This document shows positions 1-35,523 of a stretch of DNA of 57,757 nucleotides, piece after piece. The stretch spans positions 124,001 through 181,757 of the forward strand of contig MEDY01000064.1 of assembly GCA_001724265.1 (NCBI GenBank). The letters run 5' to 3'. A program made the position numbers and the translations under genes. Origin of the DNA: Rhizaria sp. SCN 62-66. Its lineage: Eukaryota. Each line of letters opens with the position of its first letter. Positions within the stretch are counted from its first letter, which is position 1. The notes under the pieces were generated by a model. It made no database searches. It was not told the origin of the DNA and worked only from the letters and a program-made list of their open reading frames with translations.

Positions 1-5
1 GCGAA

Positions 6-2363: not shown

Positions 2364-2410
<47 letters not shown>

Positions 2411-5400
2411 AAGCCATGATGCCACCTTGCGCAGTGACCGCGCCCCTGTATTCCTCTCGTACGTAGCTGAGTCTGCGTGTGATGGTGTTGCAGTGGCCAC
2501 GTACAACCTGCACTCTGCTCGCCTTGCAGTTGCCGCTGCAGGCACCCGGGTTTCCCGCGCAGTTGCTGTTGTTGCTGCGGTGACGCAGAGCGTTACTAAC
2601 TGGTATCAGGCCAACAGGATGAATACCACGCTCGACAACATGAACTGCGATAAAATCGCTCGCAACTCAACAGACGACAATGACAATTTTAGTGCAAGTG
2701 ATGTGGCGAAAGAAGAGTATGACATGCCTCTTCACTCGAAATCATGGCAAAAGATTATGCTGAACCCGTTAGCGAAGCCACAGCCTTTCCCGTATCTACC
2801 TGTTGCCCCTGCCGCGCCTGCTAGCAATCATGATGCTGAGGATGGACACGTCGAGAATTCAGTTGTATCCGCCGTGCGCGTTGCTGCTTGTGCTGTTTCG
2901 TTCGCGGCTACGCACGTGTCATCGAGCTTTGCTGGCGTCGGGTTCACGAACTCGCGTCTCTTTGCGTGCTTTTCGAGCTACAACACAAGTACCTCTTTAG
3001 CGACGACTGATACAGCCAAAATGGATGATGGCAGCCCTTCGGCACATCTATCAACACAGGAGCCTCTCTCAGCGTCTGCGTCAGGGTCAACGTCGGCACC
3101 AGCGTCGTCGCTTGCAGCTGCGTCGCTCGCGCTGGGCTCTGCCTCGGTCACTGCACTAGCTGGAATGAAGCTGCCTGCACACTTGGAGCTTTTCACCCCG
3201 GGCTTATCTTCCGATGTTGCTGCTGCGTTGACAGCGGTGTGGCTACTATGGCCAAGCGGTTTTAAGCCTTTATTGCGACTTACTCACATTATTGGGCACA
3301 CTCTTAGCGGCTGGGCGCGCGGAGTATCTGATACCGTGATGGCAGCAACGGCTGCTGTTGCTGCGGACGCAGCTGAGTGTGATATTGAGTCGACGCAAGC
3401 GGTCGATAACAGTGCAAGCGCACGTGCCGATGGCGATGGCGGCGCAGAGAATGCGCTGCAGAACGATGTCGACACTGCTCTTCGTCGTGAGCTTGCGATC
3501 ATCTCATCCCTCTCAAGCCAGCTTCCGCGTCCACTTATAGCTCTCATTCCTAAGGTTCTCGCTGCCCTTACCAAGCTTTCGAGCGAGACCAACCACGCAC
3601 AGTTTCCCATGGGTCAGTCCTCGACAGTTGTAGAGCTCTCTCCGTCGCACCCGCAGTCGTTCGGCCCTGATGAGCCTCTGAGGGGCTACTTACGCACGCT
3701 CCATGGCGTTACCAACTTCACACTGAACCTGCTTGACCCATTGATGCGCGGTGCATTTGCCCCAATGGCCGCACCCGCTGCTGCAGCGCTACGGCAGAGG
3801 CTAGAACCCGCAGCGCCGCGCCAGCGCGTCGACGCCGCTGCGCGCGCGGCCCGCCCCGCGTGGCTTGGCGTGCAGCGGCGCGCAGTCACAGCGCTCACAG
3901 CGCACGCCTTGCAGGGCACGCTTGCGCGATGGCGGTGGCACGTTGAGCGGTGGGACGACAGGCGCTGGGGACTTGGTCCTGCGGCGGGACGCGCGCTTAC
4001 ACTTGCTGTTGCTGCGGGCGTAGGAGTGGTCGAGCCATCGCTGCAAGGAAGTCATTCTAGTCTGGATGGCGTGGACCTCTAGCAAGAGGGGCCATGGTTG
4101 TTTGGACTTTGCCACTGGGTCTCAGACTCCTCGGTCGCATCAGTTGGAGCAAGCACAAGTGATACAGTGCAAATGTCTCAGACTGACCTCAGCTCAACCG
4201 CCTCCGTATTGCCGAAGCTGCCAGTTTGCACTGCGATGTCTGCAGTCACATCGGCCACGCGTCACATGCTCGGAAAGCACATGAGAGCACTGCCGCCTCA
4301 CACACACAAAGATGATCAAAGTTATAACAGCGATCAGAATCGTGCGTTTTCGATGTGTTTGCGCTGTGCGCGCGTATCCGCACTTGCCCGGCGTGCAGTG
4401 CTCATGCAGCCTAGCAGTATGCTACAATCCTTTGCAGCTGCTGCGAACGATGCTGCTCCACATTGGGCACAGGCAGCAACATCACTGCTCAATATTGCTG
4501 ACGACAGCGCAGCGACGGATCTCGCGTTTGCACCACCAACCTTGAGTGCTACTGCAGCCGGTGTTGCAGCAAACTTAGCATCCAAAGCGGCAGATAACGC
4601 AGCTACGAGGGCGATTGATGCCGCGACTACATCATATTTCATGTCGAAGTCAATGCACGTGACAGCAGGATCGAACTCGGATCCGAAGAGGGGTAAACAA
4701 TGTGACAACAATCGCGCTTCTGCTTGTGCAAGTGGCGCCAAGACAGCACACGTGTATGCAGCGGCAGCCGCGACGGCACTGGCGCAAGCTCTATCGTCAC
4801 TTCCTGCGACCGACAGTGATGCTGTCACGCGGCCCGTCACACTTTCTGCGTTTGCAGCTGCTATTGCTGCCAGTGTGGATGCGGGTGCTGACTCAGACGC
4901 GGAGACAATGGCCTTGCTTTCTGCTCTTGGGGTCTCTGGTGTGAGCAGTCGTGAGTTCTTTGCCGCCATTCAAGGAGGCGTGATCGCCGAAGGTGGCGAA
5001 AGCAGCAGTGGGGTCGCTGCCGCTAACCGCGGTACTACTAGCAACGCTGACTGTGCCGCCCCGTGGCTGCGCGGACTGCTCACAGTCACAGTAGAGCTGC
5101 ATCGGCTGCTAACCACGGTTGCTGCCAGGGAGCCAGAGTTGAATCTTGCAAGCTCGGGGAAGATGGCTGTCGTCACAGTTCCTTTCCCTGCATCTGTCTT
5201 AAACAAGTCTTCCCCAGAACCCTCGTCGACTTCTCGTCGTGAGCCCAGTGAAGCCTCGCGTACGGCCGCTGCTTCAACGGCTACTGCGTTGACAACTAAC
5301 GGCACTGATGTGGTAGATATTGACTCGAATAAGAATGATACGAGTGTGCTGGACAACGCTGAGTCCGTGGCACATGCTCTTGAATCGACTGCTGCTGAGC

Positions 5401-8400
5401 CTGCCAATACTGCACCCAGCGACATGACTGATGGCGTCGATGACAACGCTTTCAAAACTCCTTCCACCAGCGCTGCGCAGCCCGCTGCTCCGAAGAGTGG
5501 AAAAAGCAAGAGTGCCCGGAGCAGGGCCAGTCCTGCATTCGGCCCGACCGGCGCAGAGCCCCACGGCACATCTTCTGCTCTTCCCGAGTCGAAGGCGACC
5601 GGGCCTGAGACAGTATTCCCAGTCGCAACTGTTGGAGCAAAGACAGTGGGCGTAACATCGCAATGTGAGACTACGTTTGGTCTCTGGGTTCGGAAGACTG
5701 TTTGCTCAGTGTCGGGAAGCCAATCGGCGTCCGTTGCGCAGAGTCCTTTGCTCAGTGGCCGTGACACGCAAGACAACATCACGGCCACTGTTAGCGACAG
5801 TAACAATCTGGCATATGACCTGAAGATTAGTGCCAGTCAATCCCGCAGTATCACAAGTGGAAGCCGAATTGTTGCGCTGGAGAGTGTTAGACTTGAGCCT
5901 GTTGTATCTGTCTTAGACTCCCTTACTGTCTGGGCAACGTACTCGAACTTGTGTGCATTGCATCAAGCCATGAGCAGCGACAATTCGTCCTCGCCAGCTA
6001 GTGCGCATGCAAAACATGGACCTCAGAGTGAGTATCGTGCAGCGCTCAATAGCGATATGCTCCTTGCGAACCACCCAATTCTTGCGCCACTGGCAATGGC
6101 GCTTATTGCATCTTCCATGATGGCATCATCGAAGACGCCCATCATCGCACGTCGAATCACGGCGGATGGCACGACTGATTCTCGTTGTTCTGAATCCATG
6201 CCCGTACTATCTGAAACGTTCACTTTTGCGCCACCTGCACCTGTTGCGTTCTCTTGGGTTGTCCCAACGGAACACAGCAACAATATTGTTCCCAGCGTTG
6301 CGAGTGACTCAGTATTTGATTTCGCTCCCAATGGCGTTACTAATACCTCTGTTGCCGCATCTGCCTCGCTTGCAACGGCTGCTCTGGCTTCTGGCGACCC
6401 TGTCTCTCGCACCGCTTCGGTTAACTCACTGCTGTATGCGTCAGATGAAGTTCTGTTCCGCTTTGCCGTTCTTGCCGCGGCGACCGCACCCGTGACTTTT
6501 GCGGCCGCAACCGCGGTAGCAGGGATTGACAAGGGCGGCAAGAAGATTCGTGCTGTGGCAGCTTCACTGCCACGGTTTTCAGCAGCAGCCGTGTCATCGG
6601 CGCTCGTTCCTGCGTCGCAACGACTTGCGATGCTTGCAAATGATGCATTCATGGAGTATTACAATGCGCAAAAGAATGCCATCCGCACCAGTGTGCTGCA
6701 GCAGCAACAGCAATTGGACGCAACCACGGTGCCCACAAATGTGCCTGTTGGTCTTAGCGATAATGGGGCTGACAGCGATGACGGAATGAGCAACGACATG
6801 CTAGCGGTGAAACAGCTTCTCGGGCGGTTCAGCCTACATCCGAGCATCGGTGCTCCTATGAAACTGTCATCACAACGCGGCCGCGGGAGGTCCAATGGTA
6901 CAACCAAGAGCAAGGCGATGCCCGGTGAAAAGGGCAAGGCTCGTCGCGGCCGTCCTCGTAAGCACGTCATTGCTGACGACACAACCTCGGTGAAGTATGC
7001 GAATGATGTAGAGACTATGAGTGAAGGCGAAAGCTTCGAGATCCTCAGCGATGATAGCGGCGTTGGCAGCGACATCGACAACGCAGACAGGGACGATCCT
7101 CGCCTGATGGGCGGCGATGTGAGCAAGAGTAAGAACGGCGCCCGCAAGCGTGGCCATGACAGCGATGTTGGACTCGATCAGCGTCGCCCGCAGCAGCCGC
7201 ACGGCAGTGGTCTGCAATCTCACACTTACTCTGGCGATGGATCCGACTCGGCGCTCGAGATTTCAAGCAGAGAGGATGAGAGTGATGCGAGGCCTGGAGG
7301 TACAGGTGCTAAGAGCAAGGGCAAGCGCGGAATCAATGGTAAGAGGCGCAGTAGTCACGGCCACGATGAAGGCGGCGACCTCGACAACAGCAGCTCTGAT
7401 AGTGACGTCGTGCTGATCGCAACTCTACGAAACCCGTACCCACCTACGGCTGCTGCGCTCGCCAATAGTCGCAACCGCGCCTTGATGGGGTCGAGTATGG
7501 CGCGATACGGGTCGAAGCTAATTCGCTATCAACAGAGCGCGCTTCACCATCAGTCGTCGTATCACAGCCAAAACAACAAAATCGCGACTGCTCGAGGCAG
7601 CAAGGTCGGCAAGGGTGCCCTTCGCAGCAAAGGCAAGCTTGACTCAAATCGCAGGGATGTCACATTGGGCAACAGGCTCGGGGGTGCAGTGCCGACGGTT
7701 GATCTTGCAAGCGACGATGACGGCAATGACAGCAACAATAACGAGAGCGAGGAGGGTGATGATGAAGACGATGTTGTGAATGCTGATGGTGACGACAGTG
7801 ATGCGTCTAGTACAGGACACATCTCGCTCTCTGACTCAGATCTTGACGCCGATGCATATAACAGCAAGCTGTTTAACTCGCTCAGCCTTCATAACATGAG
7901 TAATGGTGGCATTCAAAACTTCAATGCTAGACCCGCATACCAGTTCGCCACTCCAATCCAGTCGACAGCGCTCGTAATTGCCCCAAGTGCAGGAGCGCTT
8001 GCAACGCACGACTATCTCTCCGCGACGAGCCGCGCAGGCTCAATGGGCAGCTTGGGCTCCGGTGCCATTTTTATTGGATCGTCACTCTCAAGTCCGGACT
8101 TAAGTCGGAATTTGTTTCATCACAACCTCCCTCTGTCTCAAGGTGGGCTGGCGCCTGCGCAGAGCCTCGGCGAAGTCGTGCCTTACACCAGCAGTCGTGG
8201 TACTAGCAGTGATCTCAGCAGCATCACAGGCGGCTACCTGCCTGCTGTTGACTCAGACGATGCAGCGCAGCAGGGTGCAATGCTTGAGGCACCTGCTCAG
8301 GAAGGAGTGGTGCCTGCGACCTCGTATCCGCTCGCACAAGAGCAACTTGGTGAGCTGCCGCAACGGCAACAGCAGCAACTTCAGCAACTACGACACCAAG

Positions 8401-10241
8401 AGCAGCCGCCGCAGCAACAGCAGCCATTGCCGCACCAACAACAACAACCGCAGCAGCAGATGGACGAATTGATTTTCTGGCCAGTCCATCTCCCGCTTCC
8501 CCCTGCTCCGGCCACTGCATTCGCTGCAGCGCGCTCTCTGCTGCTGCCTTTGCTGCCGCAGCTCCTGCTTACCCTCGCCTCCGCGCCGGACCTTGCACTG
8601 CCGCTTCCCCCTGCACTGCGCCCGTGGTTGTGGGCTTTGCGCTGCGACCACGCGTGGCGCACCATTGCCGACAGCAAACTCGGCCGCAAGTGCGAGCGCG
8701 TTGCAACGGCGCCCGCGCTTGCCGAGCTTGCGTGTGTCACTGGCGAGGAAGGTGCAAGTGGGACGTTTGCGCTCCCCACGGCCGCGGTGACCACGTTGCA
8801 CGCAGCGAACGCAGCAGCTGTGGCAGCGACTGCCGCCGCAGCTGCTGCCGCCGCCGCTGCTGCGGGCGCGAACGCGGCAGCAGCAGCGGTCAGATCGCCT
8901 GGGGTTGTGAAGGCGATGTCCGGTACCGCGACCGCGAGTGACATCGCGGTCAACTTTGCCTCGCGTATCTCTGCGCCACTCCGCATTAACGAGGCAGGCT
9001 CTCTTGTGCCGTGGCAGTCGCGTGCCGCACTTGCTGCAGGCGGTTTGAGTAACACCATGATTGCAGCGCGCCGTACATTTGCGGCGGTGGGGCAAATGCA
9101 AGTTACAATGTGGGCCTCTTCGCTGGGTGCGAGTGTTGCTGCTCTTGCTAAGCTCGTTGTTGTGCTGTGGATCGCGAACACCGCAGCCCCGCCCCTTATC
9201 AACGTCAACACTGACGCGAGCTCTGCGTCAAGCGCGAGTGTAAATGCTGATGACTCTGCTACCGGGAGCAGCAATGCCGGGAATGCTGTCGATGCCGGCG
9301 AAGATGTGGCTGTTAACAGTATCGCGGCGCTGTGGGGCTATGAGGAACTCCCACTGCTCACGCCGCCTGTGATCGACGCCGCGCTCCGTGACTCTGCGGC
9401 CCCAGCCACTCTGGCGCTGCCACCTGGCGCTGCCACCTATCGGGCGACTTCTCCTATTTGTTCTCCTCAAACTCAGAACAGCAGCGCTTTGGCGTGCGCC
9501 TTGTCAACAGCGTTGTCAGTTGCTGCGAACGCTCGTGCGCACGCACGTTCAGCCAACCGCACATGTGCGGCTGTGTCTGCCGTTGCTGTCGCCGGCGTTA
9601 TCGGCGCCGCGGCTGAGGCGGCCACGCGTGCGTTGTTGAGCGACTGGCCCTTGATGACTCAAGCCGCCGACGGCGCCGTAACAGTCAGTGGCGGCGGTGA
9701 AACGGCGCTCCGCGAAGCGCTCGCCTCCGCGGATGTTGCAGCGCGGGCCATGGCAGCTGGTGGCGCGTCTGCCGCCGCTGTTTCGGCCGCGCTGGCCCAA
9801 CCTCTGCAGCCGCGTGGCGGCATGCGCTCGGTGGGTAGTGTCACAGCAGAGTCCGTCGCCGAGGCCGCGAGTCGCATTGCGAAGCTCTCAGCGCAGGCCG
9901 CTGTGCCGGCGACAGTGGAAACCCTTTGGTCTCTCATCGTCACTGGCATCAACAGCGCTATTCCGCGCCTCGACCCCACTGCGGATGCTGCGACGAGTGG
10001 CGCAGGCAGCGGCGCCGCGGGAGCTCCCGGTCAGAGCGCGCCTGTGGGCGCCGGCGCTGCGGTCGCGTGGGCCGAGGCCGGCGGTCGCCTGCTTGACGCA
10101 AAGACAGCGTTGGGGCCGGCGACAGTGGGCGCGGGTGCGGGCGCTGACGCCTCGGCGGTGGGCGGTGCTGGTGCGCCTCGTGGCGGCTTGGGAGTTGGAT
10201 CCGGCACGGTCAGGGGTCGCAGGGCTCGCGCCATGCCTTAA
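6..10241 (+). CDS. Giant (>=3400 aa) Ala/Ser-rich low-complexity hypothetical protein with an AT-hook; probably 5'-partial; internal in-frame TAG at 4080-4082
   Basis: ORFs 6..4082 and 4098..10241 are in the same frame, separated only by TAG (GAC CTC TAG CAA GAG GGG CCA TGG). AT-hook RRGRPRK at ~6942-6962, acidic and basic tracts, ends in TAA. Confidence 0.7.
2355..2411 (+). repeat. (CAG/CAA)n poly-Gln microsatellite
   Basis: Visible CAG run inside the CDS. Confidence 0.95.
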
Positions 10242-10642: not shown

Positions 10643-13600
10643 TTAGTGCTTTTTATCGGCGGCCGCCGCAGCCGCAGCAGCGGCAGCGGCAGCACCGACA
10701 CCCGAGCCAGCCTTAGGCGCCATAACACCCTTGGCAGTCCTCAGCGCGTCGCTCCGGCGACCCGCCGTGGCCTGCGCGACTTCGCTGGCGATCTCCGCTC
10801 CGCCGGCGCGGCGCTCGGCGCCGACGGACAGCGACGCGATTGCGGCGTTGCGCGCGGCCGACGCCGAGGCAGCCGCGGCCTCGGCCTCGAGCTCCTTGAC
10901 ACGGTCCGCAAGCTGCAGCTCCCAGTCCTTGACGTTGTCGCCGTAGCCGCGCGCGACGCGGTCGTCGAACAGACGCGGGGCGCGCTTGTCCAGGTAGCAC
11001 TCGATCGTGTCGCCCTCCTGGATGCTCGTCGTGTCAGATAGCAGCACGCCGCACTCCTTGCCCTTGGCGATGCGCGGCACCTCGTCCTTGAAGTGTTTCA
11101 GCGACATGCACTGCAGCCCCTCCTGGACCGTCTTACCCTCACGGATCACGCGCCACTTGAGCTCGGACAGCTGCTTGTCGCGGTCCGGGTGCACGTACTT
11201 GATCAGCTCGCCCTCGGTGACGCGCGAGCCGCACACGACGGGGTCGCCCGTAAACGTGATAAGGCGGTTATACGCGTGCGACACATCGTCGGCGATGCGA
11301 CGCAGCGCGGGTCGCGTAAGGTTGAGCGGGAACAGCTTTTGCACGAGCGCACCGCCCAGCACCTGCGGTGTGTAAGTCGCGGGCAGCTTCTCCGAGATCA
11401 CCTTCTGGATGTGGTCGAACGCGTGGAAGATGACGTCGCTGGTGAAGATCTCGATGCCGAGCTCCTTAGCCTTGGTCGCCGCGCCGCGGGAGGCCGTGGT
11501 GTTGAACGCGACAATGTGTGCCTTGCGCTCGTGCGCGGAGAGCACGTCCTGCTCGCTGACTTCGCCGAGAGTCGCGCGCTGGATGTCGATGATCAAGTTG
11601 TGCGCGTCGGGTGACATACCCAGGTCGTTGACGTAGCTCGTCAGCGCGTCGAGCGAGCCGTGCACGTCGGCCTTGAGGTACAGCGACGCCGTGCGCTCCT
11701 CCTGCTCGGCCATGAGCTGCAGCAGCTCGGGCGTGTCCTGGTACTGCACGGCCGAGAGCCGGCGCGCGAACGGGTTCAGGTGCACGCGCTCGGGCGCCGA
11801 CTTGATGCGCGGGTTGAACGTCTCCTCGTTGGAGCGATCCTGCAGCGCGGCGGACTCGCGGTCCATGGTGCGCTGGCGCACGACGAGGCGCGCGATGTCG
11901 TCAGAAGCCAGCGCGAACAGGTCGTTGGAGAGCGAGTCAAAGCCGTTCTCGAGGTGCAGGCCGAGGACTTGGACGGGATCGCTGTTGAGGCCAGTGGCCT
12001 CGGTGATCTGCTCGCCGTTGGCGTTGATGAGGCCGCGGACGGTGCCCATCTCGGTGCCGCACACGACAGTGTCGCCCACGCGCAGAGAACCCTAAAAGTG
12101 ATGAAGAAAGGTTAGAACAATATAAATGTGTGTGAGCAACTGCAGCATGATATGAAATAAACTATTGATATTCAAAAACCACCGAAGTATATCTTGATGA
12201 TTTGTTGAGTTACGTACCTGGCGGACGACGACGTTGAGCGTCGGCCCCTGTCCCTTGCCGGGGTGCGCCTCGACCACGAAGCCGAAGCCAAGCGTGTAGG
12301 ACGTAAAGTCGCGCGGGTCGAGCCCGTTGACGCCGTCGAGACGGTCCATCTCGGCCTCGATCTTGGCCAGCTGCGCCGCGTCGGTGCGCCGGCGGTGGCG
12401 CGCCACGAAGGCCTCCACCATCGCGGGCGTCGGCTGCGGGCGCGAGACATGCGTGAGGTGGCGCGACTGAGCGATGAGCGCGATGGACTCGACCAGCTCG
12501 TCGATGTTCTGCCCCGTCTTGGCGCTGATCTCGACGGACATGATCTCGCCGCCGAGCCCGTCGGTTTTGATGTCGCACTCTGCGAAGAGGTCCTGGCGCA
12601 CCTTGTCTGGGTCCGCGCCCGCGATGTCGCACTTGTTGATGGCGACGATGAACGGCTGCTTGGACCCGATGGCGAGGCGCGCGGCCTCCTTGGTCTGCGG
12701 CTGCACCGAGTCGACCGCAGACACGACCAGCACGATGATGTCGGTCAGGTTCGCGTCGGCGCCGCGCGCGCGCATGTTCTTGAACACGGCGTGGCCTGGA
12801 GTGTCGAGGAACGTGATCGACGGCACGAACTCACGCAGCTCCTCCGGCACGGCGACGCTGAAGCCGCCGATGGACTGCGTGATGCGACCGGCCTCGTGCG
12901 CCGCCACGTCGGTGCGGCGCAGCGCGTCGAGCAGCGACGTCTTGCCGTGGTCGACGTGGCCCAGGATGCACACCACAGGGGCGCGCATCTGGTCGTCCTC
13001 GCCGCCCTCGCCGTCCGCGCTGTCGTCGTGGCCGGCGGTGAGGCGCGAGGTCGTGCCGCCGACGGCGTCGAGCTTGAGGTCGACGTCAACGTCGAACTCG
13101 GCCGCGATGAGCTGCGCGAGCTCGGCGTTGACCAGCGACGTCATAGTCAGCGAGTTCTCACCCAGCACGCGCGCGGCCTTGATGAGCGCATCGCGCCGCA
13201 CGCCAAGCCGCTGCCCCAGCTGCATCAGCGACTGCGTGGGGAAGATGGGCACCACAGGCCGCAGCGCGCGCGCGGCGTTTTCTTTCTTCTCACGCTCCTG
13301 CTGTGCCCGCGCCAAGTCGGCGGCCTGTCGCGCCGCGCGCTGGCGTTTGTGCTCGCGCTTCGCGTCGGCCTCGTCGCGCTCCTGCTGCACCTTGCGCGCG
13401 ATCATGAGCCGCATGGGATCGAGCCCACGCACGAGCGAGTCGAACAAGTCGAACTTGGACAGGTCGCCGCCGCCGGACGTGCTGTTGGACAGCGGTAGGA
13501 ACGGGTTGTTGTCCGCGCCGGCGGCGGCGGCCAGTCCGGCGGCTGCGGCGGCGGCCTTCTCGCGACGCCGCGCCGTGCGCTCGGCGACCGCGACCGCGCG

Positions 13601-15334
13601 CTCCTCCTCGGTCATGGTCTGCTTCTGGCCGTGACCCAGGCCGCTGCGGGGCCCATCGACGTCGTCGTCGTCGTCATCGTCGTCGAGCTTGGCTTTCTTG
13701 TCTGCGGGGCGCGCCGCAGTGGCAGCGCCGGCGGCGACCTTCTGGCCGCCCGCGGCGTCGCCGGCGCCCGCGCCAGCCGCCTTAGCACCGGCCGCGCCGG
13801 CCCCGGCAGCCCCCTTGCCGCTGGCGCTAGTAGGGATCATGTCCCCGTCGTCGTCCGCGCTCGCGCCGCCGCTACCCGCGCGACCGCCCTTGGCAGCCGC
13901 GGCCGCGGAGGCAACGGGGGTCTTCTTGACGGCGAGCCCGGCCGACGCGAGCAGCGCGCTGTTCTCCGTCTGCTCGCCGTCGTCTTCGTCGCCGCTGACG
14001 TAGCCGCTGCGCTTGCGGCTGACACCCGCGTTGCTCTTGCTGGTCGCGGCCTCGATCGCGGCCGAGTCGACCGACACCGCGAGCGGGGCGCTGGCGCCCG
14101 CGCTGGCGCTCTTGGCCGAGCGCTCGATGCTCGCCAGCGACGACAGCGCCGTCGCCACGCGCGCGCCCGACGACTGCGCCTGCGCCTGCATCTGCATCAG
14201 CCGCTCGCGCGGACTCAGCTCCACGGCCGCGGCGGCGGCGGCCGCGGCGGCAGCGGCGGCGGACGCCGCGTTCGCGGCCGCGGCGGTCGCGGCGGCCTTT
14301 GACGCGGCGGCCGCGTTGGCGACGGCCGCGGCGGCGGCAGACTGATGGATCGACGTGTTGAGCGCCGCAAAGGGATTAGTGCCTGCAGTCAGAGGGTTAC
14401 TCGCGTTCGCGAACGGGTTGGTGGCGCCCGGGGCGAAAGGATTACTCCCCACCGCAAAGGGGTTGGGCGCGACGCCGACACCGACGCCGGCGCCGGCGGC
14501 AAAGGGGTTCGTGGCGCCCATCGCGAAGGGGTTGCTCGCCGAGGGCGCGAAGGGGTTGCCGGCCGCGGGCGCGAACGGGTTGGCTGCAGCGCTGAGGCCC
14601 GCAGCGAAGGGGTTCGGGGACACGCCGGGGGCGCCGGCGGCGCCGGCTGCGAAGGGGTTGGGGGCCGCAGCGAAGGGGTTCACGCCTGGGCGCGCGCCGG
14701 CGGCGGCTGCGGCAGCGGCGGCGGTCGCGGCAGCGGCGGTCGCGGCAGCGAAGGGATTACGTGCGGCTGCCGCGGCGAAGGGGTTCGGCGGCGGCTGTCG
14801 CGCGCCGGTGGCTGCTGCGCCAACAGGGGCACCAGCGGCGGCGGTGGCAAAGGGGTTGTTGCGCGCGCCGAGGCTCGCGAAGGGGTTCACGGGCGGCGGC
14901 GGCGGCGGCGGGGCGCCTGTGCCAGTAGCGCCGGCAGCGGTGGGCGCAGCGGGGGGACGCGAGGCGAAGGGGTTCGGGACCGCGGCGGCCGCAAAGGGGT
15001 TTGGAGGCACAGCGCCTGCTGGGCGAGCCGCAGCGGCCGCGAAGGGGTTCGGCGCGGGCGCGGCAGGTGCGCCCGCGCGACTGGCAGCGGCGGCCGCGGC
15101 GGCGGCGAAGGGGTTCGGGGGCGGCGGGGGCGCACGGGGGCCTGAGGAAGCAAAGCGCGCGCAGCCGCGGGTCAGCACGGGGGCTGCGTGGCGCGCGGCA
15201 GAGCCGATCGCGGTGCTGGTTGCGGAAGCAGCAGACTTTGTGAGTGTAGCAGCGAAGGAAGTCGTTGCGGCGGCGGCGGGGGCGACAAGGCGCACGCGAC
15301 GCCGGGCAGCGCCGACAGTGCCCAGTCCCTGCAT
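10643..15334 (-). CDS. MTIF2: Organellar (probably mitochondrial) translation initiation factor IF-2, ~1521 aa; exons 15334-12218 and 12091-10643
   Basis: G1 GHVDHGKTSLLD, EAGRITQSIG, DTPGHAVFKNMRARGA, NKCD, LKADVHGSLDAL, SLKHFKDEV..GKECGV. The Arg/Ala-rich N-terminus resembles a transit peptide. Splicing joins VVRQ|GSLRVGD. Stop is TAA. Confidence 0.93.
12092..12217 (-). other. Spliceosomal intron (126 nt) in IF2
   Basis: GTACGT...CTAAC...TTTTAG, AT-rich, phase 0, restores the conserved IF2 sequence. Confidence 0.92.
14370..15120 (-). repeat. Array of ~19 NPF(A) peptide repeats in the IF2 N-terminal extension
   Basis: Recurrent GAAGGGGTT on the + strand, equal to AAC CCC TTC (NPF) on the - strand. 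Confidence 0.9.
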
Positions 15335-22872: not shown

Positions 22873-24332
22873 ATGGAGCCCCAGCACTTCGAGACAGATG
22901 ACGCTGCCGCTTCTGGCGCCACTGCCGGCCCCAAATTCTCCTGGCTCGCCACGTCCCGGCGCTACCATACCGCTTTTGCCACCGTCGGCGCTTTTCCTCT
23001 GCTCGTTACAATTGTGACAGGCTGTGCGTATCGCTTCCTGCGCGCCGTGCTCAACGTCGACAAAGAGCGCATCGGCTGGCTGCTCGGCCTGCACACTTTC
23101 TCCGTCGCCGGCATCGGCGCCTTCTACCCGCTCCTCGTCGCCTTCCTTGTCTTTGGGCTTGCGCTCTCCTCCGCGCTCCCGCTCCTGCGCCACCTCCATG
23201 CGACGTACAACAAGTTAGGCCGCGCCCCGACCTCTGCGATGGCGCGCGCCACCGCCGCCGCGCCGTGGTCCGCCGCCACTGCGCACCGGGCCCTCGGTTA
23301 CGTCTCGCTGCCGCCGCTGCTGCTCTTCGCTGCCACAGGCGCACTGTACACGATGGAGAAGCACTGGGGCGCTGCGGACAAGGCGTACATGAAGACTATG
23401 ATGCGCTGGCATCAGGTGCGTAAACAACGTCACATCAACTGAACTGATGTATCAGCAGGATACCTGTTTTTTTCCGTAATCCTATGTTTCAATTATATTG
23501 CGGTTTTATGTTATTATTGGTATTTCTTGTTTTAAACGTATCCCTTATATCCTAAACATTGCGTACTCACTTACTCAAACTTGTGTGACCATTGTTATGC
23601 ATTACGATCAACTACACCTGCACCTGCAGCTCTCGTTCGCGATGCCTGCAGTTGTCTGGACCACGCTGTCCGCGATTCCCCTTGCCCTTCTTGTCGGATT
23701 TGGTCTTGTTCTGCTTGCGCGTGTGACTTTTAGCGCAATGCAGGCCCGCGGCATCCACATCGTGTAAGTCAAATTACCTGAAAACCAAATGCCTATCGTC
23801 AATATCTTCTCGTATATGTTGTGTGCAGAAGAACATCGCATTGAAAAAATGTTCTTGGAATGTTTTAATTTTGAGAACTCTGTATACCACGTTGTGCTCA
23901 TGAAAAAACCTCGTACATGTTACTTGTTTCTGGCGCAATTGCTTGCCTCATATGCTACACAGGTTCAACCTGCGCTCCATTGACGACCCCCTCCAGTCGC
24001 GCGTGGGCCCTCCCCCGGCCTCCACTGGTGCCTTCCCCAACCCCGCCAGCGGGGGTCGTGGTGGTCTAACTTCCTCCCCGACCCGCATCGCGCCCAGCTC
24101 GGCCCGCAACGGCGCGGCCGCGGTGGCGCCGACCCCGTCCGCCGTCGCGGGCGCCGCGGGGACCGGTTTCGCGCTGGCGATGAGTCCGCGCGAGGCGGCG
24201 GCCGCGGCGGCACGCGAGGCCCAGATCCGGTACGCGCCGGTGCATCACGCGGCCGCGGGGGCGGACTGCGCGCTTTCGCTCGACGACAACGACGACGACT
24301 CGGCGTAGTACGAGTCGGACACCACAGCGTGA
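22873..24332 (+). CDS. Membrane protein with two PepSY-TM-like repeats; exons 22873-23415, 23630-23763, 23963-24332 (ends at 24308 if TAG is a stop)
   Basis: Duplicated unit RRYH..FPLLVTIVTG.Y..LLGLH / AHRALG..PPLLLFAATG.Y..MMRWH. Introns GTGCGT..GCAG (phase 0) and GTAAGT..ACAG (phase 2) join three ORF-track ORFs in frame. Confidence 0.7.
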
Positions 24333-25165
24333 GGGGGCAGTCCGTGGGACGCCGATGGTGTCGTGATTTGATATTTTTAGAGCATACTTGTGCTGATACG
24401 TTAGTTATTGTTTTTTTGTTATTCGTATTTGATTTGAAATGATCATGGTGGATGTTAATAGTTCTGTTGGTATCGTGGTTATATCTGTTTGTTTGTTTTT
24501 GTGTTTGAGTGTTTGATGTTATGTTAATAATCTTCGAGTTTATGGTATTTTGTATAAGTATGTCGTTATTATTAATGTAGAAACCTTATTTGCTTCATCT
24601 TTGTGACAATTTTCCTGGCTCACTAGCAGTCGTTGTCGTCATCCCTAATACGAGTATTTCAACTCGCGTTTACATGGCGTGTCACGATAGCGATTGTTGA
24701 CAGAGCTAGTGATACGTTCATTTATGATTGTGATCTTTGTACGTACATGCTAATCTGGTTTGTTTTAGTAGTCATGTTGATAGATTAAACAATCGTATGG
24801 ATTCGTGATCACGAGTACTCGAAGACTGTGAACGCCGATGAAGGAACGCTTAACGCGAGCTTGATAATGACTCAAGCCCACATACGTGTCACAAAATAAA
24901 TACGGAAATTGAAGAGACATTATGTTCAAACCATTCCCCGATATTTGCCGTCTGTCGCTGCAGACATGGCGTCGTTAAATTAACAGTTAAGCCTACTGTC
25001 AGTCGCATCTCGGGTACTTGTTCCAGAAATGAGATGGCCTGTGTTCTGATTTCAACAAACAATGGTGACATTATTTTTGGCACTGACTCATTAACAATTT
25101 ATCTCGTCAAACTGTCACCAGTGGTCGCTCACCATCCGGCATTCCTACTGCAGAGTGAAGTGCAC

Positions 25166-25537
25166 ATGTCTCACTCAGTTCCGCAGCCAAATGCCGCGTC
25201 TGGTGCAACGGAGGCTCAACCCCAGGCATCTTCCGACTCCCTCGATGGCATGCACCGTTTAAAGACGGTAGTTGCCCCTTCTCCTGCGGCTGAGCAGCGC
25301 AAGCATGTTGAAGGCCGTATCAACCAGCGTCGCCTGTTCCGGGTCAAGAGTCTGACTGAGGACGGGGACGATGCGGTGCTGAGAAAGAAGACCAAGTCGA
25401 CGCAGAGGATGTGGCAGGCGTCAGAGTGGGTGCCGCTGGAATATTCCCAGCGAATGGAGACTACCAACAAGTTGATGGCAGTCATTGTCAGGCTATCAAA
25501 GATCAAAAAGCAACGTAAAACGCAAGAATAGCCTTGA
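25166..25537 (+). CDS. Small basic hypothetical protein (ends at TAG 25531 or, with readthrough, TGA 25537)
   Basis: GC-richer island with a plausible ORF (MSHSVPQ...SKIKKQRKTQE). No recognised domain and the start is uncertain. Confidence 0.5.
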
Positions 25538-25759
25538 ACAAGATTGATCCATCGTTAAGTATCATTTGTGTATTAGACATAAGTGAGGTTCAAATATTAT
25601 TTCGCATAACATGTGTGGAACATGTTTTTTAGGTGGTCATTTCCCTGGCCTGTTCCGACAAAAACTTGGAATCATCACAAAACGATAAGTGTTCGTGTCG
25701 TTACTCAAATCACAATCTTCTCATCCTCTGCGTAAACGGACACCGCAGTGAGAAGTAGA

Positions 25760-28629
25760 TCACCGCGGTGAGTCAGCAAACACACTGCTCCCCGTCGTCG
25801 AGTCATCGTCGCCAATACCCCGGCCCCCGTGTCCGTGCGCCCCACGGCCGTAGCCGCCGCCAAGAGCGACGCCACTGCCGCCGTTGCTGGAGCCCCTGTT
25901 GCCGCTGCTGTTCGACTTGGCGGCGTCAGCCTCCGCGGCGACGGCGGCCCTCTGCAGCGCCGCGGGCCGCCCCGCCGCCCGCGCGCGCGCGCTGAGGCCG
26001 ACGCCCAGCTGGTCGGCCAGCGCCCGCGCGCGGCGCTCCTCGGCCTCGTCGGCGGCCTCGGCAGCCGTCTGCGCCAATGCGCGCCCGCGGGCGTCGGCCT
26101 CGGCCAGCGCGGCCACACTGTGGTCGAACGCCGAGTGAAAGCCGCCGGCAAGACCGTGGGCTGCGCCGTCGTGATGTTCGTCGCCGTGCGCGTCATCAAA
26201 GTCGTAGTTGTGGAGCACGAGCTCGCCTTCGTAGTGCGGGTCGTATCTAAGCGTCTACATCAAACCGGTAGAATCACTAGCGGCGCTGCACGTTGCCGCA
26301 GCAGTCGTACTGTTGTTCATCTACGGGAACGCAAACACGTTGTTCGAATTGCCCCGGCCCGCCTACAGCGCGCGGCCGTGCGCGCCCGCGCCGCCGCTGC
26401 CGAGGTCGTCGATCTCAGCGTCAGCGTTGGGCGGCGGCGGCAGCGGGTCAAAGCGCGGCGAGCCCAGCGGCGGCGCGGGGCGCGGGGTCGAGGCCGGGGT
26501 ACGCACGCCGCCCGCGCTGAGGTTGCCCGAGCCGGCCGTCGCGACGGCGCTGCCCACCATCGCCGTCGCCGCGGGCGTGTCGTGCGCGGGTGCGGGCAGC
26601 GCGGGGAGGTCGCCCGAGTGCGAGAGCGACAGAGAGTGCGTGTACGCCAGCGTGGGGGACATGGCGCCGGCGCTGTTAGGGCCAGACAGGGGCGGCGACA
26701 GCGGGAGAGAGCCGGAGCCAGACGCAGACGCAGAGGCAGACGCGGATGCCGAGGCCGCGGCGGGCACTGACGACGACACCGACAACGCCAGGGCAGTCGC
26801 GGCCGCGTTGCCGCTTCCGCCGGCGGTCTTAGGGGCGGCGCCCGAGAGCGACTGCTGGGCTGCATAGGCGCTCGCGCCCGCGGTGCTGACGCCATGGGGC
26901 GCCGCGTTTGCAGAGATAGTGCTGTTGTGGGACTGCGAGTGCGAGAGAGCGTTGGCGCCAGACACAAACGACACGCCGCCGCCGCCGGGGTTGCCTCGAC
27001 CGGCGGTGACTTTGCCGTCGCCACCGAGATCGTCGTGGCCGGCCGCACCGGTCTCGGCATCGGCCGCGGGCGGCAGCGCGAGGGCGCGCGTATAAGCGTA
27101 CGCGATGCGGGTGCGGCGCATTACCACGGCCACGATCGTCTGTCAGCGAACAAGAACAAACAGCAAAGAAAAAAAATATGGAAATTCGTAAAAAGTGTCA
27201 GAACGATTGTGATAAAACAAGAAACGAGAACATCTTTCAAAAACTACTCCTTCATCGTAGGATCATGCGTTGAGCAGCGCGCAGTGCGTACCTCGGCGAA
27301 GACTGTGCTGATGACGACTACGGCGAGCAGGCGCACGTGCTGCACCGCCGCGTCCAGCACCTCGGGCGCGGGGTGGTCCGGCGCGAAGTGCTTCGTCACG
27401 TTGTCGATGATCGCCGTCTCGGAGAGGTTCAGCGCGAACGCGGCCGTGAGCGCGCCCGCGATGGCGAGCATGGCGTTGGCGGCGGAGAAGGCTCTGAGCA
27501 CCTCGCTGTGGTTGAGGCAGAGTCCGGTGTAGCCCGTGGCGGCGGAGAGGATCGTCGCAACCGTGAGCGCGAGCGTGGCGACGTGCACGCGCGGGGACGC
27601 GAAGGCCGTTTCGGGCAGCGACGCTGTGGCGAAGACCAGCGCGAGCGCGCAGAAGAGCGTGACAGTGACGAGGACGAGCAGGATCAGCACGCGGCGCCGC
27701 GCCGTCGCGAAGGGCGGCGCGTGCGGTATCGAGTAGTCGTCCTGAATTAACAGAATTTAACACAAATAGAATGTAATATGTAAGCCTTGCGTAGAAAGTG
27801 TAGTTTAAGTTCTTGATACTGGATGAAAAACAGCTCGTTTAGAAAGCAACATATTGTTTTGTCGTTAAAATGAAATGAAACGTACGTCGCTGGCGTCATA
27901 TCCGGCGGCGTTGCGCCGCGACCCGCTTGCGTTGGTGCCGCTCGCGCTCGCGCCATTGCCGCCGCCGTTGCCGCCACTGTGCTGCGCGTCGTACTGGTGC
28001 ATGAGGCGCTGCACGGCGCGCTTGCGGTGCGCGCGTTGCTCCCTGCGCTCGGCCTCGACCTGTTGCCGCGACTGCTGCAGCTCGACCGCGCTCTTGGCCA
28101 GGTTCGCGTCCTGCGTGTACCGCTGCAGCGCCTCCTGCAGCGCGTGTGTGCGCTTCGTGAGCGCGCGCGTCTCGGCGGCACGCGCTCGGTCTAGCGCCGC
28201 CTGCTGCTGCAGCCGCTGCTGCAGCCGGTGGTAGGCCGGGGAAGCCGGGTTCAGCCCCGCCGCGTCGCCGTCGGTGGCCCTCGCCACTGCGCCAGAGGCC
28301 GCGGAGCCGGCGGAGGGACTGACGCTGGCGTTGCTCGTGCTGTGCGAGGCGTCGTCGCCGGCCGCCGCGGCAGAGGCCGTGGCGGCGGCGGCAGCGGCGG
28401 CGGCGGCGGCAAGCGCGGCGGGGTAGGCAGTGGCTTCGTCCGAGTCGGAGGAGTAGGCCCAAACCGAGGTCGGCGTCGGCAGCTTGGCCGCGGCGGCGAT
28501 CAGCGCGGCCTCGGACTTGCTATGCGCCATCAGATGCTGCGCCCGACCGCTTCGCGAGCTTCCAGCGCCGGAGCCTGGGCCTGGGGGCGCGCCACCGCCG
28601 GCAAAGTGGGCCCGGGAAGGGCGCGGCAT
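25760..28629 (-). CDS. Four-TM (tetraspanin-like topology) hypothetical protein, ~857 aa; exons 28629-27886, 27741-27292, 27139-25760; three internal in-frame TAGs
   Basis: Phase-0 introns GTACGT..TCAG and GTACGC..ACAG. Coiled-coil N-terminus and four hydrophobic helices. ORFs 26363..27133 and 25760..26218 share a frame, bridged by TAGs at 26365-63, 26323-21 and 26257-55. Stop is TGA. Confidence 0.68.
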
Positions 28630-30304: not shown

Positions 30305-33300
30305 TTACATATTTCTGTAAGGGCTATTGTTTGCACTCTTGTTCCCGCCCGCAATGCTGCAGTTAGCAATGTTAGTTGTCGTGTTATCGCTATTGCCATT
30401 GCTCGCGTTGATGCTGTGGTCGTTGTTGCCCACGTTGTTTTTGTGGCCGTTGTAATACATGTTGGTGATGGCGTTGATGTGCGTCGTCGTCGCCGTGCTG
30501 TAATGGTGGTGCGTCGTGGCCAGCGACGAATCATACTCAGATCCGAGCCACACGTCCTCCTCCTCGTCGTCGTCGTCGTCGCTGTCGTCGCCGTTGTTGA
30601 CGCTGTCCCCAAAGCTAGGCCCGCGGCCGTCGACGCCAGTGACGCCGTCGCCGTCGCCGTCGCCGTCATTGTCGCCACCACCATCACCGGCGCTCTCAGC
30701 ACGAGTGCGGGAGCGGATCACACCGACGCGAGCGCCAGAGGTGACGGCAGCGCCATTGCCGAAGCCGGCGCCTGAGCTCGTGAAAGCGCGGGAGAAAGCG
30801 CCAGCAGCAGCAGCGGAGCCCGCCTTGGTCGTGATGAAGCCGCTGGGACCAGGACCGGCGCTAGCGGTCGCACTGGCGGCGTCGCCAACTGTGGTGAGAT
30901 ACGCGCTGTTGTTGTAATAGGCGTTGTGATCCAAGCAGTCAACGTTGTTGTCGTTATCGTCGTCGTCGCCGTTGTTATGAACGCCGTCGCCGTCGCCGTC
31001 GCAGTCATCGTCGTTGTTGTCTTCATCACTGTTGCCGCCACCGTCGCTGTCACTATGGTTATCGTCCTTCGCACGCGTGCCGCCGCCCCGGGCCCTGCTG
31101 CTCGCGCCAGCACCAGCCGCCGCAGTGGACGCACCAGCGTTGCCCTGGCCCCGCCTCTCGTCGCCAGCAGCACCAGCATCCGTCATGGGCTTCGCCGACT
31201 GAGCTCCAGCCGCGCTGGCGGCAATCGCGCTGTTTGCGCGGTAACGGCGCGGCGCGGTCGCCATCGATACAGACCGGCTGCTGCGCGCGCGCGTGCGGGC
31301 GGGGACGAAGATCAGAGACGCCGCGGTCACAGGCACCACGGTGGCAGCGGCGTCGGCGGCCGCGTCCTCGGCACCAGCGGCGTGGGCAGGCGTGGCGCCG
31401 GCGCTGGCGGTGGGGCTGAAAGTGATGACTGGCGCCTGAGCAGTGAACGAGTCGGGTCCAAAGCCATGGACGGCGACGGTGACGGGAGCGAACGAGGAAG
31501 CTGAGGCCAAGTTGAAGGCCGAGAGCGGGACAGGAACAGCTGATGCTGATGCTGCCATCGGGAACGGCGCTCCTGCCGCCGCCGCTGCTGCTGCTGCTGA
31601 AGCCGTCGTAGTAGTGAACGCGCTGGGCGAGAGGGACGACGACGGCAGGTACGGCGACGGGGGCGACCGCGGCGACAGCGGGGAGCGCGGCGAGCGCTGC
31701 TGAGTCAGCAAGTCGCAGTTGCACGCGCAGTCGCAAGTGCGCACGCAGTTACAGTCGCGCTCGCAGTCGCAGGCGGTCGCTGAGCGGTCGTTCGGGTCGG
31801 CGTGACGGACGCCACTGTTGCTGTCACCGTAGTGGCTGCGGGTGTGAACGAGGCTGTGCCGGTGTTTGTTGTGGCTGCCCTTGCCGCTATTTGCGTGCGG
31901 CGAAGTGTGGCTGTTCAGGTGGTGATGTGCGTGACTGTGACTATGACTGGGACCGTGGCTGATGTGGCTGTGGCTGCAGCCGTCATGAACACTCATGTTG
32001 TCCGCCTCACAATCACCGTCTGCAGTGATGTTGCCACCGTTGCCGTCGTTGCCGTCGTTGTCGTCGCTCATAACGCGCTGGCGCGCAGTCATCGGAGTAT
32101 GACCAAGGGCATCACCGTCAGCATCAGTCTCCGCAGCAGCAGCAGCACCACCACCAGCAACAGACTTGCTACTGCTGGTGTTGTAGTACACGAACTGGTC
32201 GCAGTCGCTGCTCGCGCGGGCGCGCGACGCCACCGGTCGCGGCCGCTTCATACTGTTGGTGTTGATGTTGTTCGCATGAGTCGCGCTCGAGCTCGCGTTC
32301 GCGGCGACATTGGGACTCGCGGTAGAACCAACGGTGCTCGCCTCCACGTCAGCTGACTGTCCGTTGGCAGTAACAGTAACGGTGGGCAGGGCGGTGGCGT
32401 GAACGTCGCTCACGGCCGGAGGAGGCGTCTCGCCAGTGAGTGCGAGCGGAGTGTCGGCGACTGTGGGCGCAGGCAAAGGAGAAACCATGGGCGGAGTGAC
32501 CGTGAGCCGAAGCGTACAGCCGTTTACGTCGCTTTGCTCGTCCTCCTGCTGCGGCTCGGCCGCTGGAGTCGAAGTGGCTGTTGCAGGATGCGTGTATTGG
32601 CGCATAATGGCGCCCATGCTCCCCATCGTCGCCGACGCCGCTGTCGCCAGCGAGCGCAGCGCAGTGACAAACGTCTGCGGAATCGTTGCCGCTGTGAAAC
32701 CGCCGCTGCCGTCGACGTCACCATCGAAGTGACGCTGCTGCTGATGAGAGATCTCACTGTGGCCCTGGTCGTAGCTGTGGTCGTGCGCGGCGTGGCCGTG
32801 ACCGTGGGCAATGTGGCTGTGGGCAATGTGGCTGCGGGCCTCCGCGTCCGTATCGTCAGTCATCACGACCTGGTCGCCCGCGTCGCAGTCCCCGCCGACA
32901 GCGTCGGCATCAGCATCGGCATCAGCGTCGGCATCAGCATCGGCATCAGCGACTCCGCACTCGGTGGCAGCGTAGCCGTCGCTGTCGTCGCCGTCGTTAC
33001 TGTTGTTGTTCAAGGCGTTGACACTGAAGTCGCTGCTGTCGCAGTAGCAGTCGTCGGCAGCGCGGGGCGTCATGGCCTCTGCGGCGCCTTGCTGTGCGAG
33101 CATTTGCTGCTGAAGCTGAAGCTGCAGCTGCAGCTGCAACTGCTGTTCCTGCTCTGCGGCAAACATCTGGGCATGCGCCAGTGTCTGGAGCTGTGTTTGC
33201 GCATCTGACTGTGGCTGCGAACTCAGCTGCAACTGCGCAAGCTGTTGCTGCTGCTCTTGAATCTGGCGGTGTTGCTGCTGTGCCTGGAGCAAAAGCAACA

Positions 33301-35523
33301 ACTGGTGCTGCTGTTGGAGTTGGTGTGCGCTCGGTTGTTGGTCGTGTTGCTGCTGCTCATGTTGTTGTTGCTGCAACGAAAGCGCAATCGACGACAAAAG
33401 CGACGGGAATCCAAGGTTAACATCACGATTGACCCCACTGGGACTGCTAGTGTTCCTGTTGTTAGCGTCCGTGTCCGAGGGGCTGTTCGTGCAATTGATG
33501 TTCCCGTGACTGTTACTGTTTTGTGACAAACTGAAGTGCGACGGCTGCGGGTGGCCGTGAGCAGTGCCAGCATTCGCACCATCAGTTGCATCAGCGTAGC
33601 GCTCGCTCAGCTCCGTGTGACTGTGGGACGCTGCGGAATGACTGTGAGCAGAGGTGAAGTGACTGTGCGCAGCCGAGTTTGTCATGTGACTGTGAGCAGG
33701 AGAGGTCGAGGCGCACATGGACGGCGACATCACCTCTTGCCCGTTGCTGTTATTATTGTTGTTGTTGTTGTTGTTGTTGTTGTCATCATAGTTGTTGTTA
33801 CCATGCTCAGCATCGTGACTATGATTGCGGTGACTGTGTGCCTCGGCGTCGTGACTGCGGTGCGCGCTACGGGAGTGACTGTGGGCGCTGTTGACGCTAC
33901 GCTGGCCATGGCGCGTGTGACCGTGGTTGCGGTGGCTATGGGGACGACGGTCGCGGGGATCACCAGCAACGACAACGCGCTCGTCTCCGTCGCCATGACT
34001 GTGCCTGTGCCTGTGGCCGTGGCTGTTGTTGGTCGAGCTTGTAGTCACGGGAATGAGCGGAGGAGACGGGAAGTCCAGCGTCTCAAGTGTGAACTCACAT
34101 GGCAAGGCGCCAAAGTGCACTGTGTCTCCAGGGCGCAGCTCTGAGAAAGGTCAGTGAAACGAAGCAAATCAACAAAGTTTGGAGGATGAGCGAGGAGCCA
34201 AAGGGGGGGGAAATATGGTCTTGAGCTAAGTGGATTAATAGTCACGATATATGCATGTCTTAAAAAATAAAACAAAATAATGATATACATGACTGAGTTT
34301 TTTCTACAATATTGTGACTAGAGTTTAAAACATTTTGCATAAACCACAAATATTCAAGTTCCTGAGAAACCGGATCTTAAACCCAGTTTCCAGAAGGAAA
34401 AAACCTTCTTTCATGGAAGTTTAGGCGTACCATAATAGGTCATGGGCTCAATCCGGACCCTGTTGATATACGTCCCGTGTTGCGACACAAGATCAAAGAG
34501 AAACACGCGCTCCTTTCCGGGCAAACTGGCCGCGAGCGCGGGCGTCTCGTCCAGCTGCGCGGAGCTGTCACCGCTCGCCTCGGTCTGGTCAGTGTCGGGG
34601 TCTGCGCCTGGCTGATCTCTCTTGCGGCCCGCCTTGCTCTGCTCGCTCTCCCCGTCACCGTCCTCCTACGCACCCCGCGTGGTAGCGCCGGGAGCGCCGC
34701 CACGCGCGTGTGGGCCTCTGTTATCCCCGCCGGAGCCGGAGTTATTGCCGAGGCTTGTCAGACTGGCCTGGCTAGTATTGCGCCGAATGCCCGACACGGC
34801 GTCTCCGGCGCTCACCGTCACCGCGACGGGCGCCTCCGCGTCCGGCCCACTCTCCTGCAGCTGCGGCGGCAGTGTTTGCGCCAGCGCGGTGAAGTGCGGC
34901 GAGGACGGGGACGCGAATTGGATGATGGCGTGCTGGCGTGACAGCGAGGGGTGCGAGAACGTGAGCACGCTCGACGGCAGCCGGCCGATTGTGAGTGTGG
35001 CGAGGCCAAAGGACGTCAAATCAAGCGGCGGAAAAGGTGCGCCGTTGAGAAACGTCGAGAGGTAGAACGGGGTGCGCGGCGGAGCGCCCCAGTCAGGCGG
35101 GACGTAGGTCTTAAGCGAGCCGCCGCCTGGGTTTCCAGTAGCAGTCCCGACGCTGGGGCCGAAGGGTGGCGGTACGGCGGAGTTTGCTGTGTCTGCAGAG
35201 CTCGTTGTAACGTGCATTTGACGCTGTGTGGAAGTATCGGAAGCAGTGGCGCCGGTGTGGGCAGAAAATGGCGGGGAGTGGCGGCCGGTGAAGGGCGAGA
35301 AGAAGGGCCCGGAATTGGTCGGGGAACGGCGTAAGGAGAGAGACGAAGCCGGGAGAAACGAGATGGGACGGCGAACCAGGGGTGAAGCTGGAATGATAAC
35401 AACGCCCTGGTGTTTTCGTGGAGATGATCCAATGACAGTCGTTGCTGGAATCTTCCTAGGACTTGGTGCGGGTGGTGGGGGCATCGAAGTTCGCCCTGTT
35501 GGGGGCGTCGTGGAGGGCCTCAT
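30305..35523 (-). CDS. FHA-domain protein with a very long low-complexity C-terminus, ~1642 aa; exons 35523-34431 and 34140-30305; internal in-frame TAG at 34668-34666
   Basis: YVPPDWG..TIGRLP..HPSLSRQHAIIQF lies before the TAG. VFLFDLVSQHGTYINRVRIEPMTYY|ELRPGDTVHFG lies after it, across phase-1 intron 34430-34141 (GTACGC..CTGAC..CTCAG). Stop is TAA. Confidence 0.85.

Follow-up and report, generated by a model that had tools for sequence, protein, structure and literature searches.

The 57,757-base stretch of contig MEDY01000064.1 analyzed here (the window) carries ~14 eukaryotic genes on both strands, 4 of which contain in-frame TAG triplets, 6 in total, embedded in coding sequence that stays open on either side. 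We interpret these triplets as sense codons: UAG would be decoded as an amino acid, with termination left to UAA and UGA, a reading to which we assign a probability of about 0.6. The original prediction, made from the letters of the window, had proposed such a UAG-only reassignment for the organism. Its local components, TAGs within read-through coding sequence and UAA or UGA as stops, are borne out by the present analysis, which supports the proposal in part; reassignment on the scale of the genome is a hypothesis.

In-frame TAGs in four genes

All 6 TAGs were found where they had been placed, each in frame with long open stretches to either side (Table 1). One lies in a giant Ala/Ser-rich gene, 1 in a CHID1/GH18-like gene, 3 in a gene of no recognized family (25760–27756), and 1 in an FHA-domain gene. 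DNA contigs of run X3, which stems from another study, show 0 differences from the window over 19418–21207, 25173–27043, and 34371–35599, so the 5 TAGs that they cross are not assembly errors. Four runs, all in the form of Logan contigs, were compared with the window over a 20-kb stretch, outside which site 4080 and the IF2 intron lie; no variant letter appeared at any TAG covered. A separate contig of 1981 bases (L001) matches the CHID1 TAG site at 100% identity, and a metagenome scan with the CHID1 alignment returned nothing beyond this identical contig. At site 4080, the same downstream open frame was obtained in 2 assemblies.

Specificity to TAG and the terminators

The interruptions are confined to a single stop triplet. 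Our gene models, with 14,081 confident codons, contain 6 in-frame TAGs, 0 TAAs, and 0 TGAs, a count with some circularity, since open frames served to define the exons. We also ran a six-frame scan of every stop triplet, in which the 30 to 50 flanking codons on each side had to score best in the frame of that triplet under the window's own codon usage. Five stops passed with flanks of 50 and of 30 codons, all of them TAG and all among the 6 described above; 4 passed with 40-codon flanks and 3 under a strict setting, and TAA or TGA passed at no setting. The TAG at 4080 failed throughout owing to the atypical codon usage of the giant gene. The assertion that coding exons hold no internal TAA or TGA is thus upheld by both approaches. 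Off-frame stops within the same coding sequence are TAG in 91 of 667 cases (14%) and TGA in 68%, which sets a TAG-only set of 6 far from the expectation for random open frames (0.14^6).

Gene ends follow the complementary pattern, with TAA at 8, TGA at 4, and TAG at none of the 12 (Table 1); the length of the MRT4 product, 237 amino acids, agrees with that of its homologues (230–250). The claim that genes end in TAA or TGA only held at all 12 ends, with Hook, for which 2 ends had been named, checked at 1 (TGA 41005). The original prediction had further stated that the base after the TAGs varies. The codons following the 6 sites (CAA, GGC, GCG, ATG, ACG, and GAG) indeed have no common context, whereas the accompanying list of 8 bases could not be matched to 8 sites.

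Introns are distinct from the TAG sites

Two further in-frame TAGs, at 12092–12094 (-) in the IF2 gene and at 17951–17953 (+) in OGFOD1, are the acceptors of canonical in-frame introns. The former intron splits the conserved VVRQ/GSLRVGD (at the slash) of IF2 domain II, and the latter (17819–17953) splits the Ofd1 C-terminal domain. The 7 introns tabulated are AT-rich islands in GC-rich exons, 126–290 nucleotides (nt) long and 32–39% GC, with GTAYRY donors (GTACGT, GTACGC, GTATGC, and GTACAT were seen) and 3′ ends composed of a pyrimidine-rich tract and then YAG, preceded in some by CTAAC or CTAAT. The lengths of the IF2, OGFOD1, and CHID1 introns (126, 135, and 207 nt) are multiples of three, and the terminal TAG is the sole in-frame stop of the IF2 and OGFOD1 introns, across which the genes appear continuous. 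In-frame introns of this kind are a trap for genetic-code inference from DNA alone. Introns also account for the TGAs at 20000 and 34413, and the FHA gene extends into the 30305–34140 exon, where it ends in TAA.

By comparison with these introns, all 6 TAGs lie off every AT-rich island. The 400 nt preceding TAG 4080 contain no GTAY donor, nor do those preceding TAG 34668, and the only frame-keeping intron candidates at the other 2 loci are 351–528 nt long and 66–70% GC; those in the CHID1-like gene would remove blocks conserved in its relative P0003. The idea that all 6 TAGs belong to in-frame introns of the IF2/OGFOD1 type is rejected on composition, absent donors, codon usage, and ungapped alignment. 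The 6 TAGs thus lie outside introns of the canonical kind found in this genome.

Coding continuity across the TAGs

Homologue, domain, and codon-usage evidence places the TAGs inside coding sequence that continues in frame, which strengthens this part of the original prediction. When 1.84 billion representatives were searched exhaustively with HMMER for relatives of the giant gene, 2 proteins came up, one being the window's own downstream frame and the other P0126, an uninterrupted protein of 1724 residues from a 17-kb metagenome contig, 41% identical and collinear with the giant gene to near the C-terminus. BLASTP aligned P0126 without gaps over 85 residues spanning the TAG (LDGVDLXQEGPWLFGLCHWVSDSSV in the window against CNDVTGNWASPWLLGLHHWASQTPV in P0126), with 9 identities in the 18 positions just downstream. 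A conserved RWHVE.WDDRRWGL lies ~45 residues upstream of the TAG and PWL.GL.HW 4 residues downstream. The gap-free alignment indicates that TAG 4080 corresponds to exactly one codon in a conserved block rather than to an excised segment, and it rules out 2 separate genes meeting at this point. In composition the giant gene stands apart, with a GC content at third codon positions (GC3) of 0.53–0.57 versus 0.8–0.9 in neighboring genes, and it carries a polyQ run.

TAG 20424 is flanked on either side by sequence that aligns with P0003, an uninterrupted 407-residue relative of the CHID1-like protein with 42% identity. The TAG itself falls within a 21-residue stretch absent from P0003; several gaps of similar size occur elsewhere in the alignment. 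In the FHA-domain protein of ~1,650 residues, positions 2–29 of the Pfam FHA profile match upstream of TAG 34666 and positions 31–54 downstream, placing the TAG in a disordered 132-residue insert within one FHA domain, the last strands of which (ELRPGDTVHFG) follow in the next exon, after a canonical intron. The gene at 25760–27756 comprises a first exon with long hydrophobic stretches and a second with a long low-complexity tail. A homologue search with 25763–27142 as the query, swamped by low-complexity words, gave no match, and continuity is argued from codon usage, the intact 164-codon frame, and an AT-rich island at 25449–25740 after the TGA.

Codon usage was scored with a model for which the window's other genes served as the training set. 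At the CHID1, 25760–27756, and FHA sites, both flanks of the TAGs, along with the 35 codons that separate the clustered TAGs, score best in the TAG frame, at -3.6 to -3.9 per codon; 1 intron and 2 spacers scored about -5 per codon under the same model. The model gives no resolution in the giant gene because of its atypical codon usage, and homology was used there instead.

Proposed decoding of UAG

The mechanism that we propose is that UAG is translated as an amino acid, with UAA and UGA kept as terminators. This would call for a tRNA with a CUA anticodon, or else for near-cognate decoding of very high efficiency, and also for an eRF1 in which recognition of UAG is lost or weakened. UAG would be a rare sense codon, so far seen at unconserved or disordered positions, as might befit a young or inefficiently decoded reassignment. 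We give even odds to a more specific proposal, in which an uncultured lineage that recurs in wastewater and bioreactors and lacks close relatives with names freed UAG independently. It would be at an early stage, with TAG already gone from gene ends and UAG in use as a sense codon only rarely and at unconstrained positions.

Several observations weigh against a reassigned UAG. None of the 6 TAGs falls on a conserved residue. Only TAG 4080 has an aligned residue, an Asn from an unconserved position in the 41% identical relative, and the other 5 TAGs are in stretches without an alignable homologue, namely the 21-residue gap, the domain insert, and, for 3 of them, the homologue-less tail. The clustering of 3 TAGs inside 37 codons is odd for so rare a codon (6 in ~14,000 codons, or 0.4 per 1000). 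P0003 and P0126, encoded on contigs of 14.4 and 17.1 kb, are uninterrupted, and there is no sign that relatives share the trait. Under the codon usage of the window, 68–75% of random nonsense mutations give TAG, so the TAG-only set speaks weakly against nonsense alleles (0.68^6 to 0.75^6, ~0.10–0.18). The lack of TAG among the 12 terminators, with a probability of ~0.03 under the standard code if one-quarter of ends are assumed to be TAG, is only suggestive of reassignment, given so few ends from one 57.7-kb window. A tRNA scan of the 57.7-kb window found no tRNA of any kind. Finally, the RNA contigs among the matches listed cover neither a TAG nor a known intron and contain no splice joint; the joints among these matches are low-complexity artefacts with sides of 18–24 letters.

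Alternative explanations

Site-specific recoding under the standard code, whether by programmed or leaky near-cognate readthrough or by UAG-to-UIG editing read as UGG (Trp), would suit the rarity of UAG (6/14,081 codons) and its unconserved positions, at which any residue might be tolerated, and editing that rescues premature UAG codons does occur in filamentous fungi. We nevertheless regard it as unlikely, since the TAGs have no common downstream context, 0 of 12 genes end in TAG, and recoding would be needed in 4 of ~14 genes, which to our knowledge is far beyond known readthrough or editing systems. The differences found in RNA contigs of run X5, which offer small coverage, were C>T (3) and G>A (1), with neither the A>G nor the T>C that editing would leave. 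True nonsense mutations, in pseudogenes or as truncating alleles tolerated in a clonal population, are improbable in our view. A TAG-only set would not be surprising under the mutational bias described above, and the TAGs do avoid conserved residues, but 6 such codons would be required in 4 of ~14 genes, the 2052, 132 + 230, 164, and 78 + 1278 codons that follow contain no frameshift or other stop, and the downstream codon bias is intact. Truncation would also strip the FHA domain of one half and CHID1 of its conserved C-terminal half, and the letters are identical in DNA of another study. The 21-codon stretch of the TAG cluster, which includes 2 of the 3 clustered TAGs, has a lowered GC3 of 0.57, as if mutationally relaxed; with UAG reassigned, this would fit a relaxed segment gathering a tolerated rare codon.

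Unconventional frame-keeping excision, of GC-rich introns without the usual signals or of some other intervening sequence, is quite improbable. The 21 residues around TAG 20424 that P0003 lacks and the 132-residue domain insert around TAG 34666 could be taken for excised segments, and visual inspection offers GT...AG pairs whose spacing is a multiple of three around 4080 (63 nt) and around the TAG cluster (120 nt). However, removal of 63 nt at 4080 would delete 21 residues from a conserved block to which the relative aligns gap-free, P0003 shows other gaps of like size, and codon usage around and between the TAGs is exon-like, unlike that of the 7 tabulated introns. Noncoding stretches should moreover be dominated by TGA, as are the off-frame stops, and no TGA was seen. 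An assembly or sequencing artefact or a strain chimera, for which a metagenome assembly such as this one provides an occasion, is hardly credible in view of the identical contigs from another study across 5 TAGs, the lack of variant letters at the TAGs in 4 runs, the identity of the separate 1981-base contig over the CHID1 site, and the identical open frame after 4080 in 2 assemblies.

Source of the window

Words sampled from the window recur in bioreactor, wastewater, and activated-sludge metagenomes of several studies and years, which identifies the window as a contig assembled from metagenome data and its source as an uncultured eukaryote. The polyA metatranscriptome X5 contains 23% of these words. 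Long contigs of this organism are present in assemblies, one of them 103 kb in length. The source is thus an uncultured, GC-rich, intron-poor eukaryote of bioreactor and wastewater metagenomes, with a GC content of 50–77% across the 57,757 bases (2-kb windows). GCN/CTG coding repeats at 17077–17081, 21229–21249, 24194–24211, and 30982 attracted foreign contigs and false joints, and depth at these low-complexity repeats is uninformative on the source organism.

In a tree of MRT4 search hits, among which there was no ciliate or green alga, the window protein groups solely with uncultured sequences. Among named taxa, the nearest matches come from a Ploeotia vitrea transcriptome (54%), animals (~45–51%), and Pigoraptor (47%). 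The uncultured clade (P0005, P0006, P0058, P0012, and P0010; 49–66% identical in the alignment) surrounds the window protein, with the named taxa outside, and its members include one on a 317-kb contig (P0006) and one on a 97-kb contig. This clade may represent an unsampled eukaryotic group in these habitats. Scans of genome contigs and viral contigs with the MRT4 alignment gave no match.

Gene content of the window

Coordinates of the genes, introns, and TAGs are collected in Table 1. No Pfam family was found in the giant gene, the gene at 25760–27756, P0003, or P0126, and the 57.7-kb window contains no Rfam families and no eRF1 gene. The N-terminal 700 residues of the IF2 gene (~13600–15200, -) form a very long Ala-rich extension with dozens of NPF(A) repeats, NPF being an EH-domain-binding motif; a long N-terminal extension is atypical for organellar-type IF2. 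The regions 21600–25700 and 38500–41000, in which AT-rich islands are numerous and frames are short and GC3-rich, probably contain multi-exon genes. They include a frame with a weak PepSY_TM-like match (22873–23442, +) and a coiled-coil-like frame (39166–39546, -).

Table 1. In-frame TAGs, genes, introns, and terminators of the window
Feature	Position	Strand	Description
TAG no. 1	4080–4082	+	giant gene; 1359 codons upstream, 2052 downstream to TAA 10239
TAG no. 2	20424–20426	-	CHID1/GH18-like gene, exon 1; open frame 390 codons upstream, 141 downstream
TAG no. 3	26363–26365	-	gene 25760–27756, exon 2; 259 codons upstream
TAG no. 4	26321–26323	-	gene 25760–27756; 13 codons after TAG no. 3
TAG no. 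5	26255–26257	-	gene 25760–27756; 21 codons after TAG no. 4, then 164 to TGA 25762
TAG no. 6	34666–34668	-	FHA-domain insert; open frame 289 codons upstream, 84 downstream
Giant Ala/Ser-rich gene	3–10241	+	at least 3412 codons, 5′ end beyond window, TAA 10239–10241
IF2-type GTPase	10643–15475	-	long N-terminal extension
OGFOD1	16015–18593	+	
CHID1/GH18-like gene	19128–21596	-	2 exons, ends TGA
Gene of no recognized family	25760–27756	-	first exon with long hydrophobic stretches; 2 exons, ends TGA
FHA-domain gene	30305–35535	-	2 exons, ends TAA
MRT4	37784–38497	+	
Hook	41005–45549	-	
GH63 glucosidase MOGS	46451–51089	+	
IF2 intron	12092–12217	-	126 nt, ~32% GC, GTACGT...CTAAC...TTTTAG; in frame
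OGFOD1 intron	17819–17953	+	135 nt, 35% GC, GTACGT...TTTTAG; in frame
OGFOD1 second intron	18223–18415	+	
CHID1 intron	19821–20027	-	207 nt, ~35% GC, GTATGC...CTCTAG; exons 21596–20028, 19820–19128
Intron of gene 25760–27756	27140–27291	-	152 nt, GTACGC...GACAG; exons 27756–27292, 27139–25760
FHA intron	34141–34430	-	290 nt, GTACGC...CTCAG; exons 35535–34431, 34140–30305
MOGS intron	48797–48929	+	
TAA ends			giant gene, IF2, 27865, FHA gene 30305, 35942, MRT4, MOGS, 53072
TGA ends			OGFOD1 18591, CHID1 19128, gene 25760, Hook 41005

Relation to known genetic codes

Changes in the meaning of UAA and UAG nearly always go hand in hand, and the UAG-only cases reported in PMC5304391 and PMC11687900 are few. 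They include the rhizarian exLh, in which UAG encodes Leu, and the fornicate Iotanema spirale, in which it encodes Gln (Panek et al. 2017, PMC5304391), as well as reassignments of UAG in phyllopharyngean ciliates and Protocruzia and of UAG to Ser in the green alga Scotinosphaera (PMC11687900). As described in PMC5304391, the nuclear genes of exLh and Iotanema resemble those of the window: UAGs occur in frame, UAA and UGA do not, and UAA is the dominant terminator. The dominance of TAA in the window despite a GC3 of ~0.85 parallels the retention of UAA in these first two UAG-only cases. With the ciliate and Scotinosphaera cases, as presented in PMC11687900, the window shares the decoupling of UAG from UAA. 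For exLh, 384 in-frame UAGs in 71 transcripts, many of them at conserved positions, made the amino acid inferable (PMC5304391); unlike exLh and Iotanema, which are transcript-based cases, the window offers 6 UAGs in ~14 genes, 0 at conserved positions, known from DNA alone. The National Center for Biotechnology Information (NCBI) translation table 15 (TAG = Gln; TAA and TGA stops) has a set of stops that matches the window; Gln, the residue favored in the original prediction, is supported by no test here.

The window combines GC-rich sequence (50–77%) and long genes with GTAYRY introns of 126–290 nt. We take a GC-rich genome with such genes and introns to be unlike the genomes of ciliates. In filamentous ascomycetes, adenosine-to-inosine (A-to-I) editing allows genes with an in-frame TAG to yield full-length protein; it concerns well under 1% of genes, and TAG stays a normal terminator. 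The window differs from these fungi in both respects, with in-frame TAGs in 4 of ~14 genes and TAG at 0 of 12 terminators.

Implications

Since UAG-only reassignment is already known, what would be notable here is its occurrence in an unplaced lineage with a GC-rich genome, at a very low codon frequency. If true, the reading would add an independent data point on the evolution of the genetic code, contributed by a non-ciliate genome that is GC-rich and poor in introns. A new sense codon that is still rare could bear on the choice between codon capture and an ambiguous intermediate, and on the retention of UAA. On a practical level, gene callers split such genes at TAG, and databases list this organism's CHID1-like protein and its giant protein only as fragments; bins of the organism would need a modified translation table. 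If the lineage did free UAG independently, it would provide a natural snapshot of stop-codon capture, and the relatives of ~40% identity, whose orthologues are uninterrupted, may bracket the transition.

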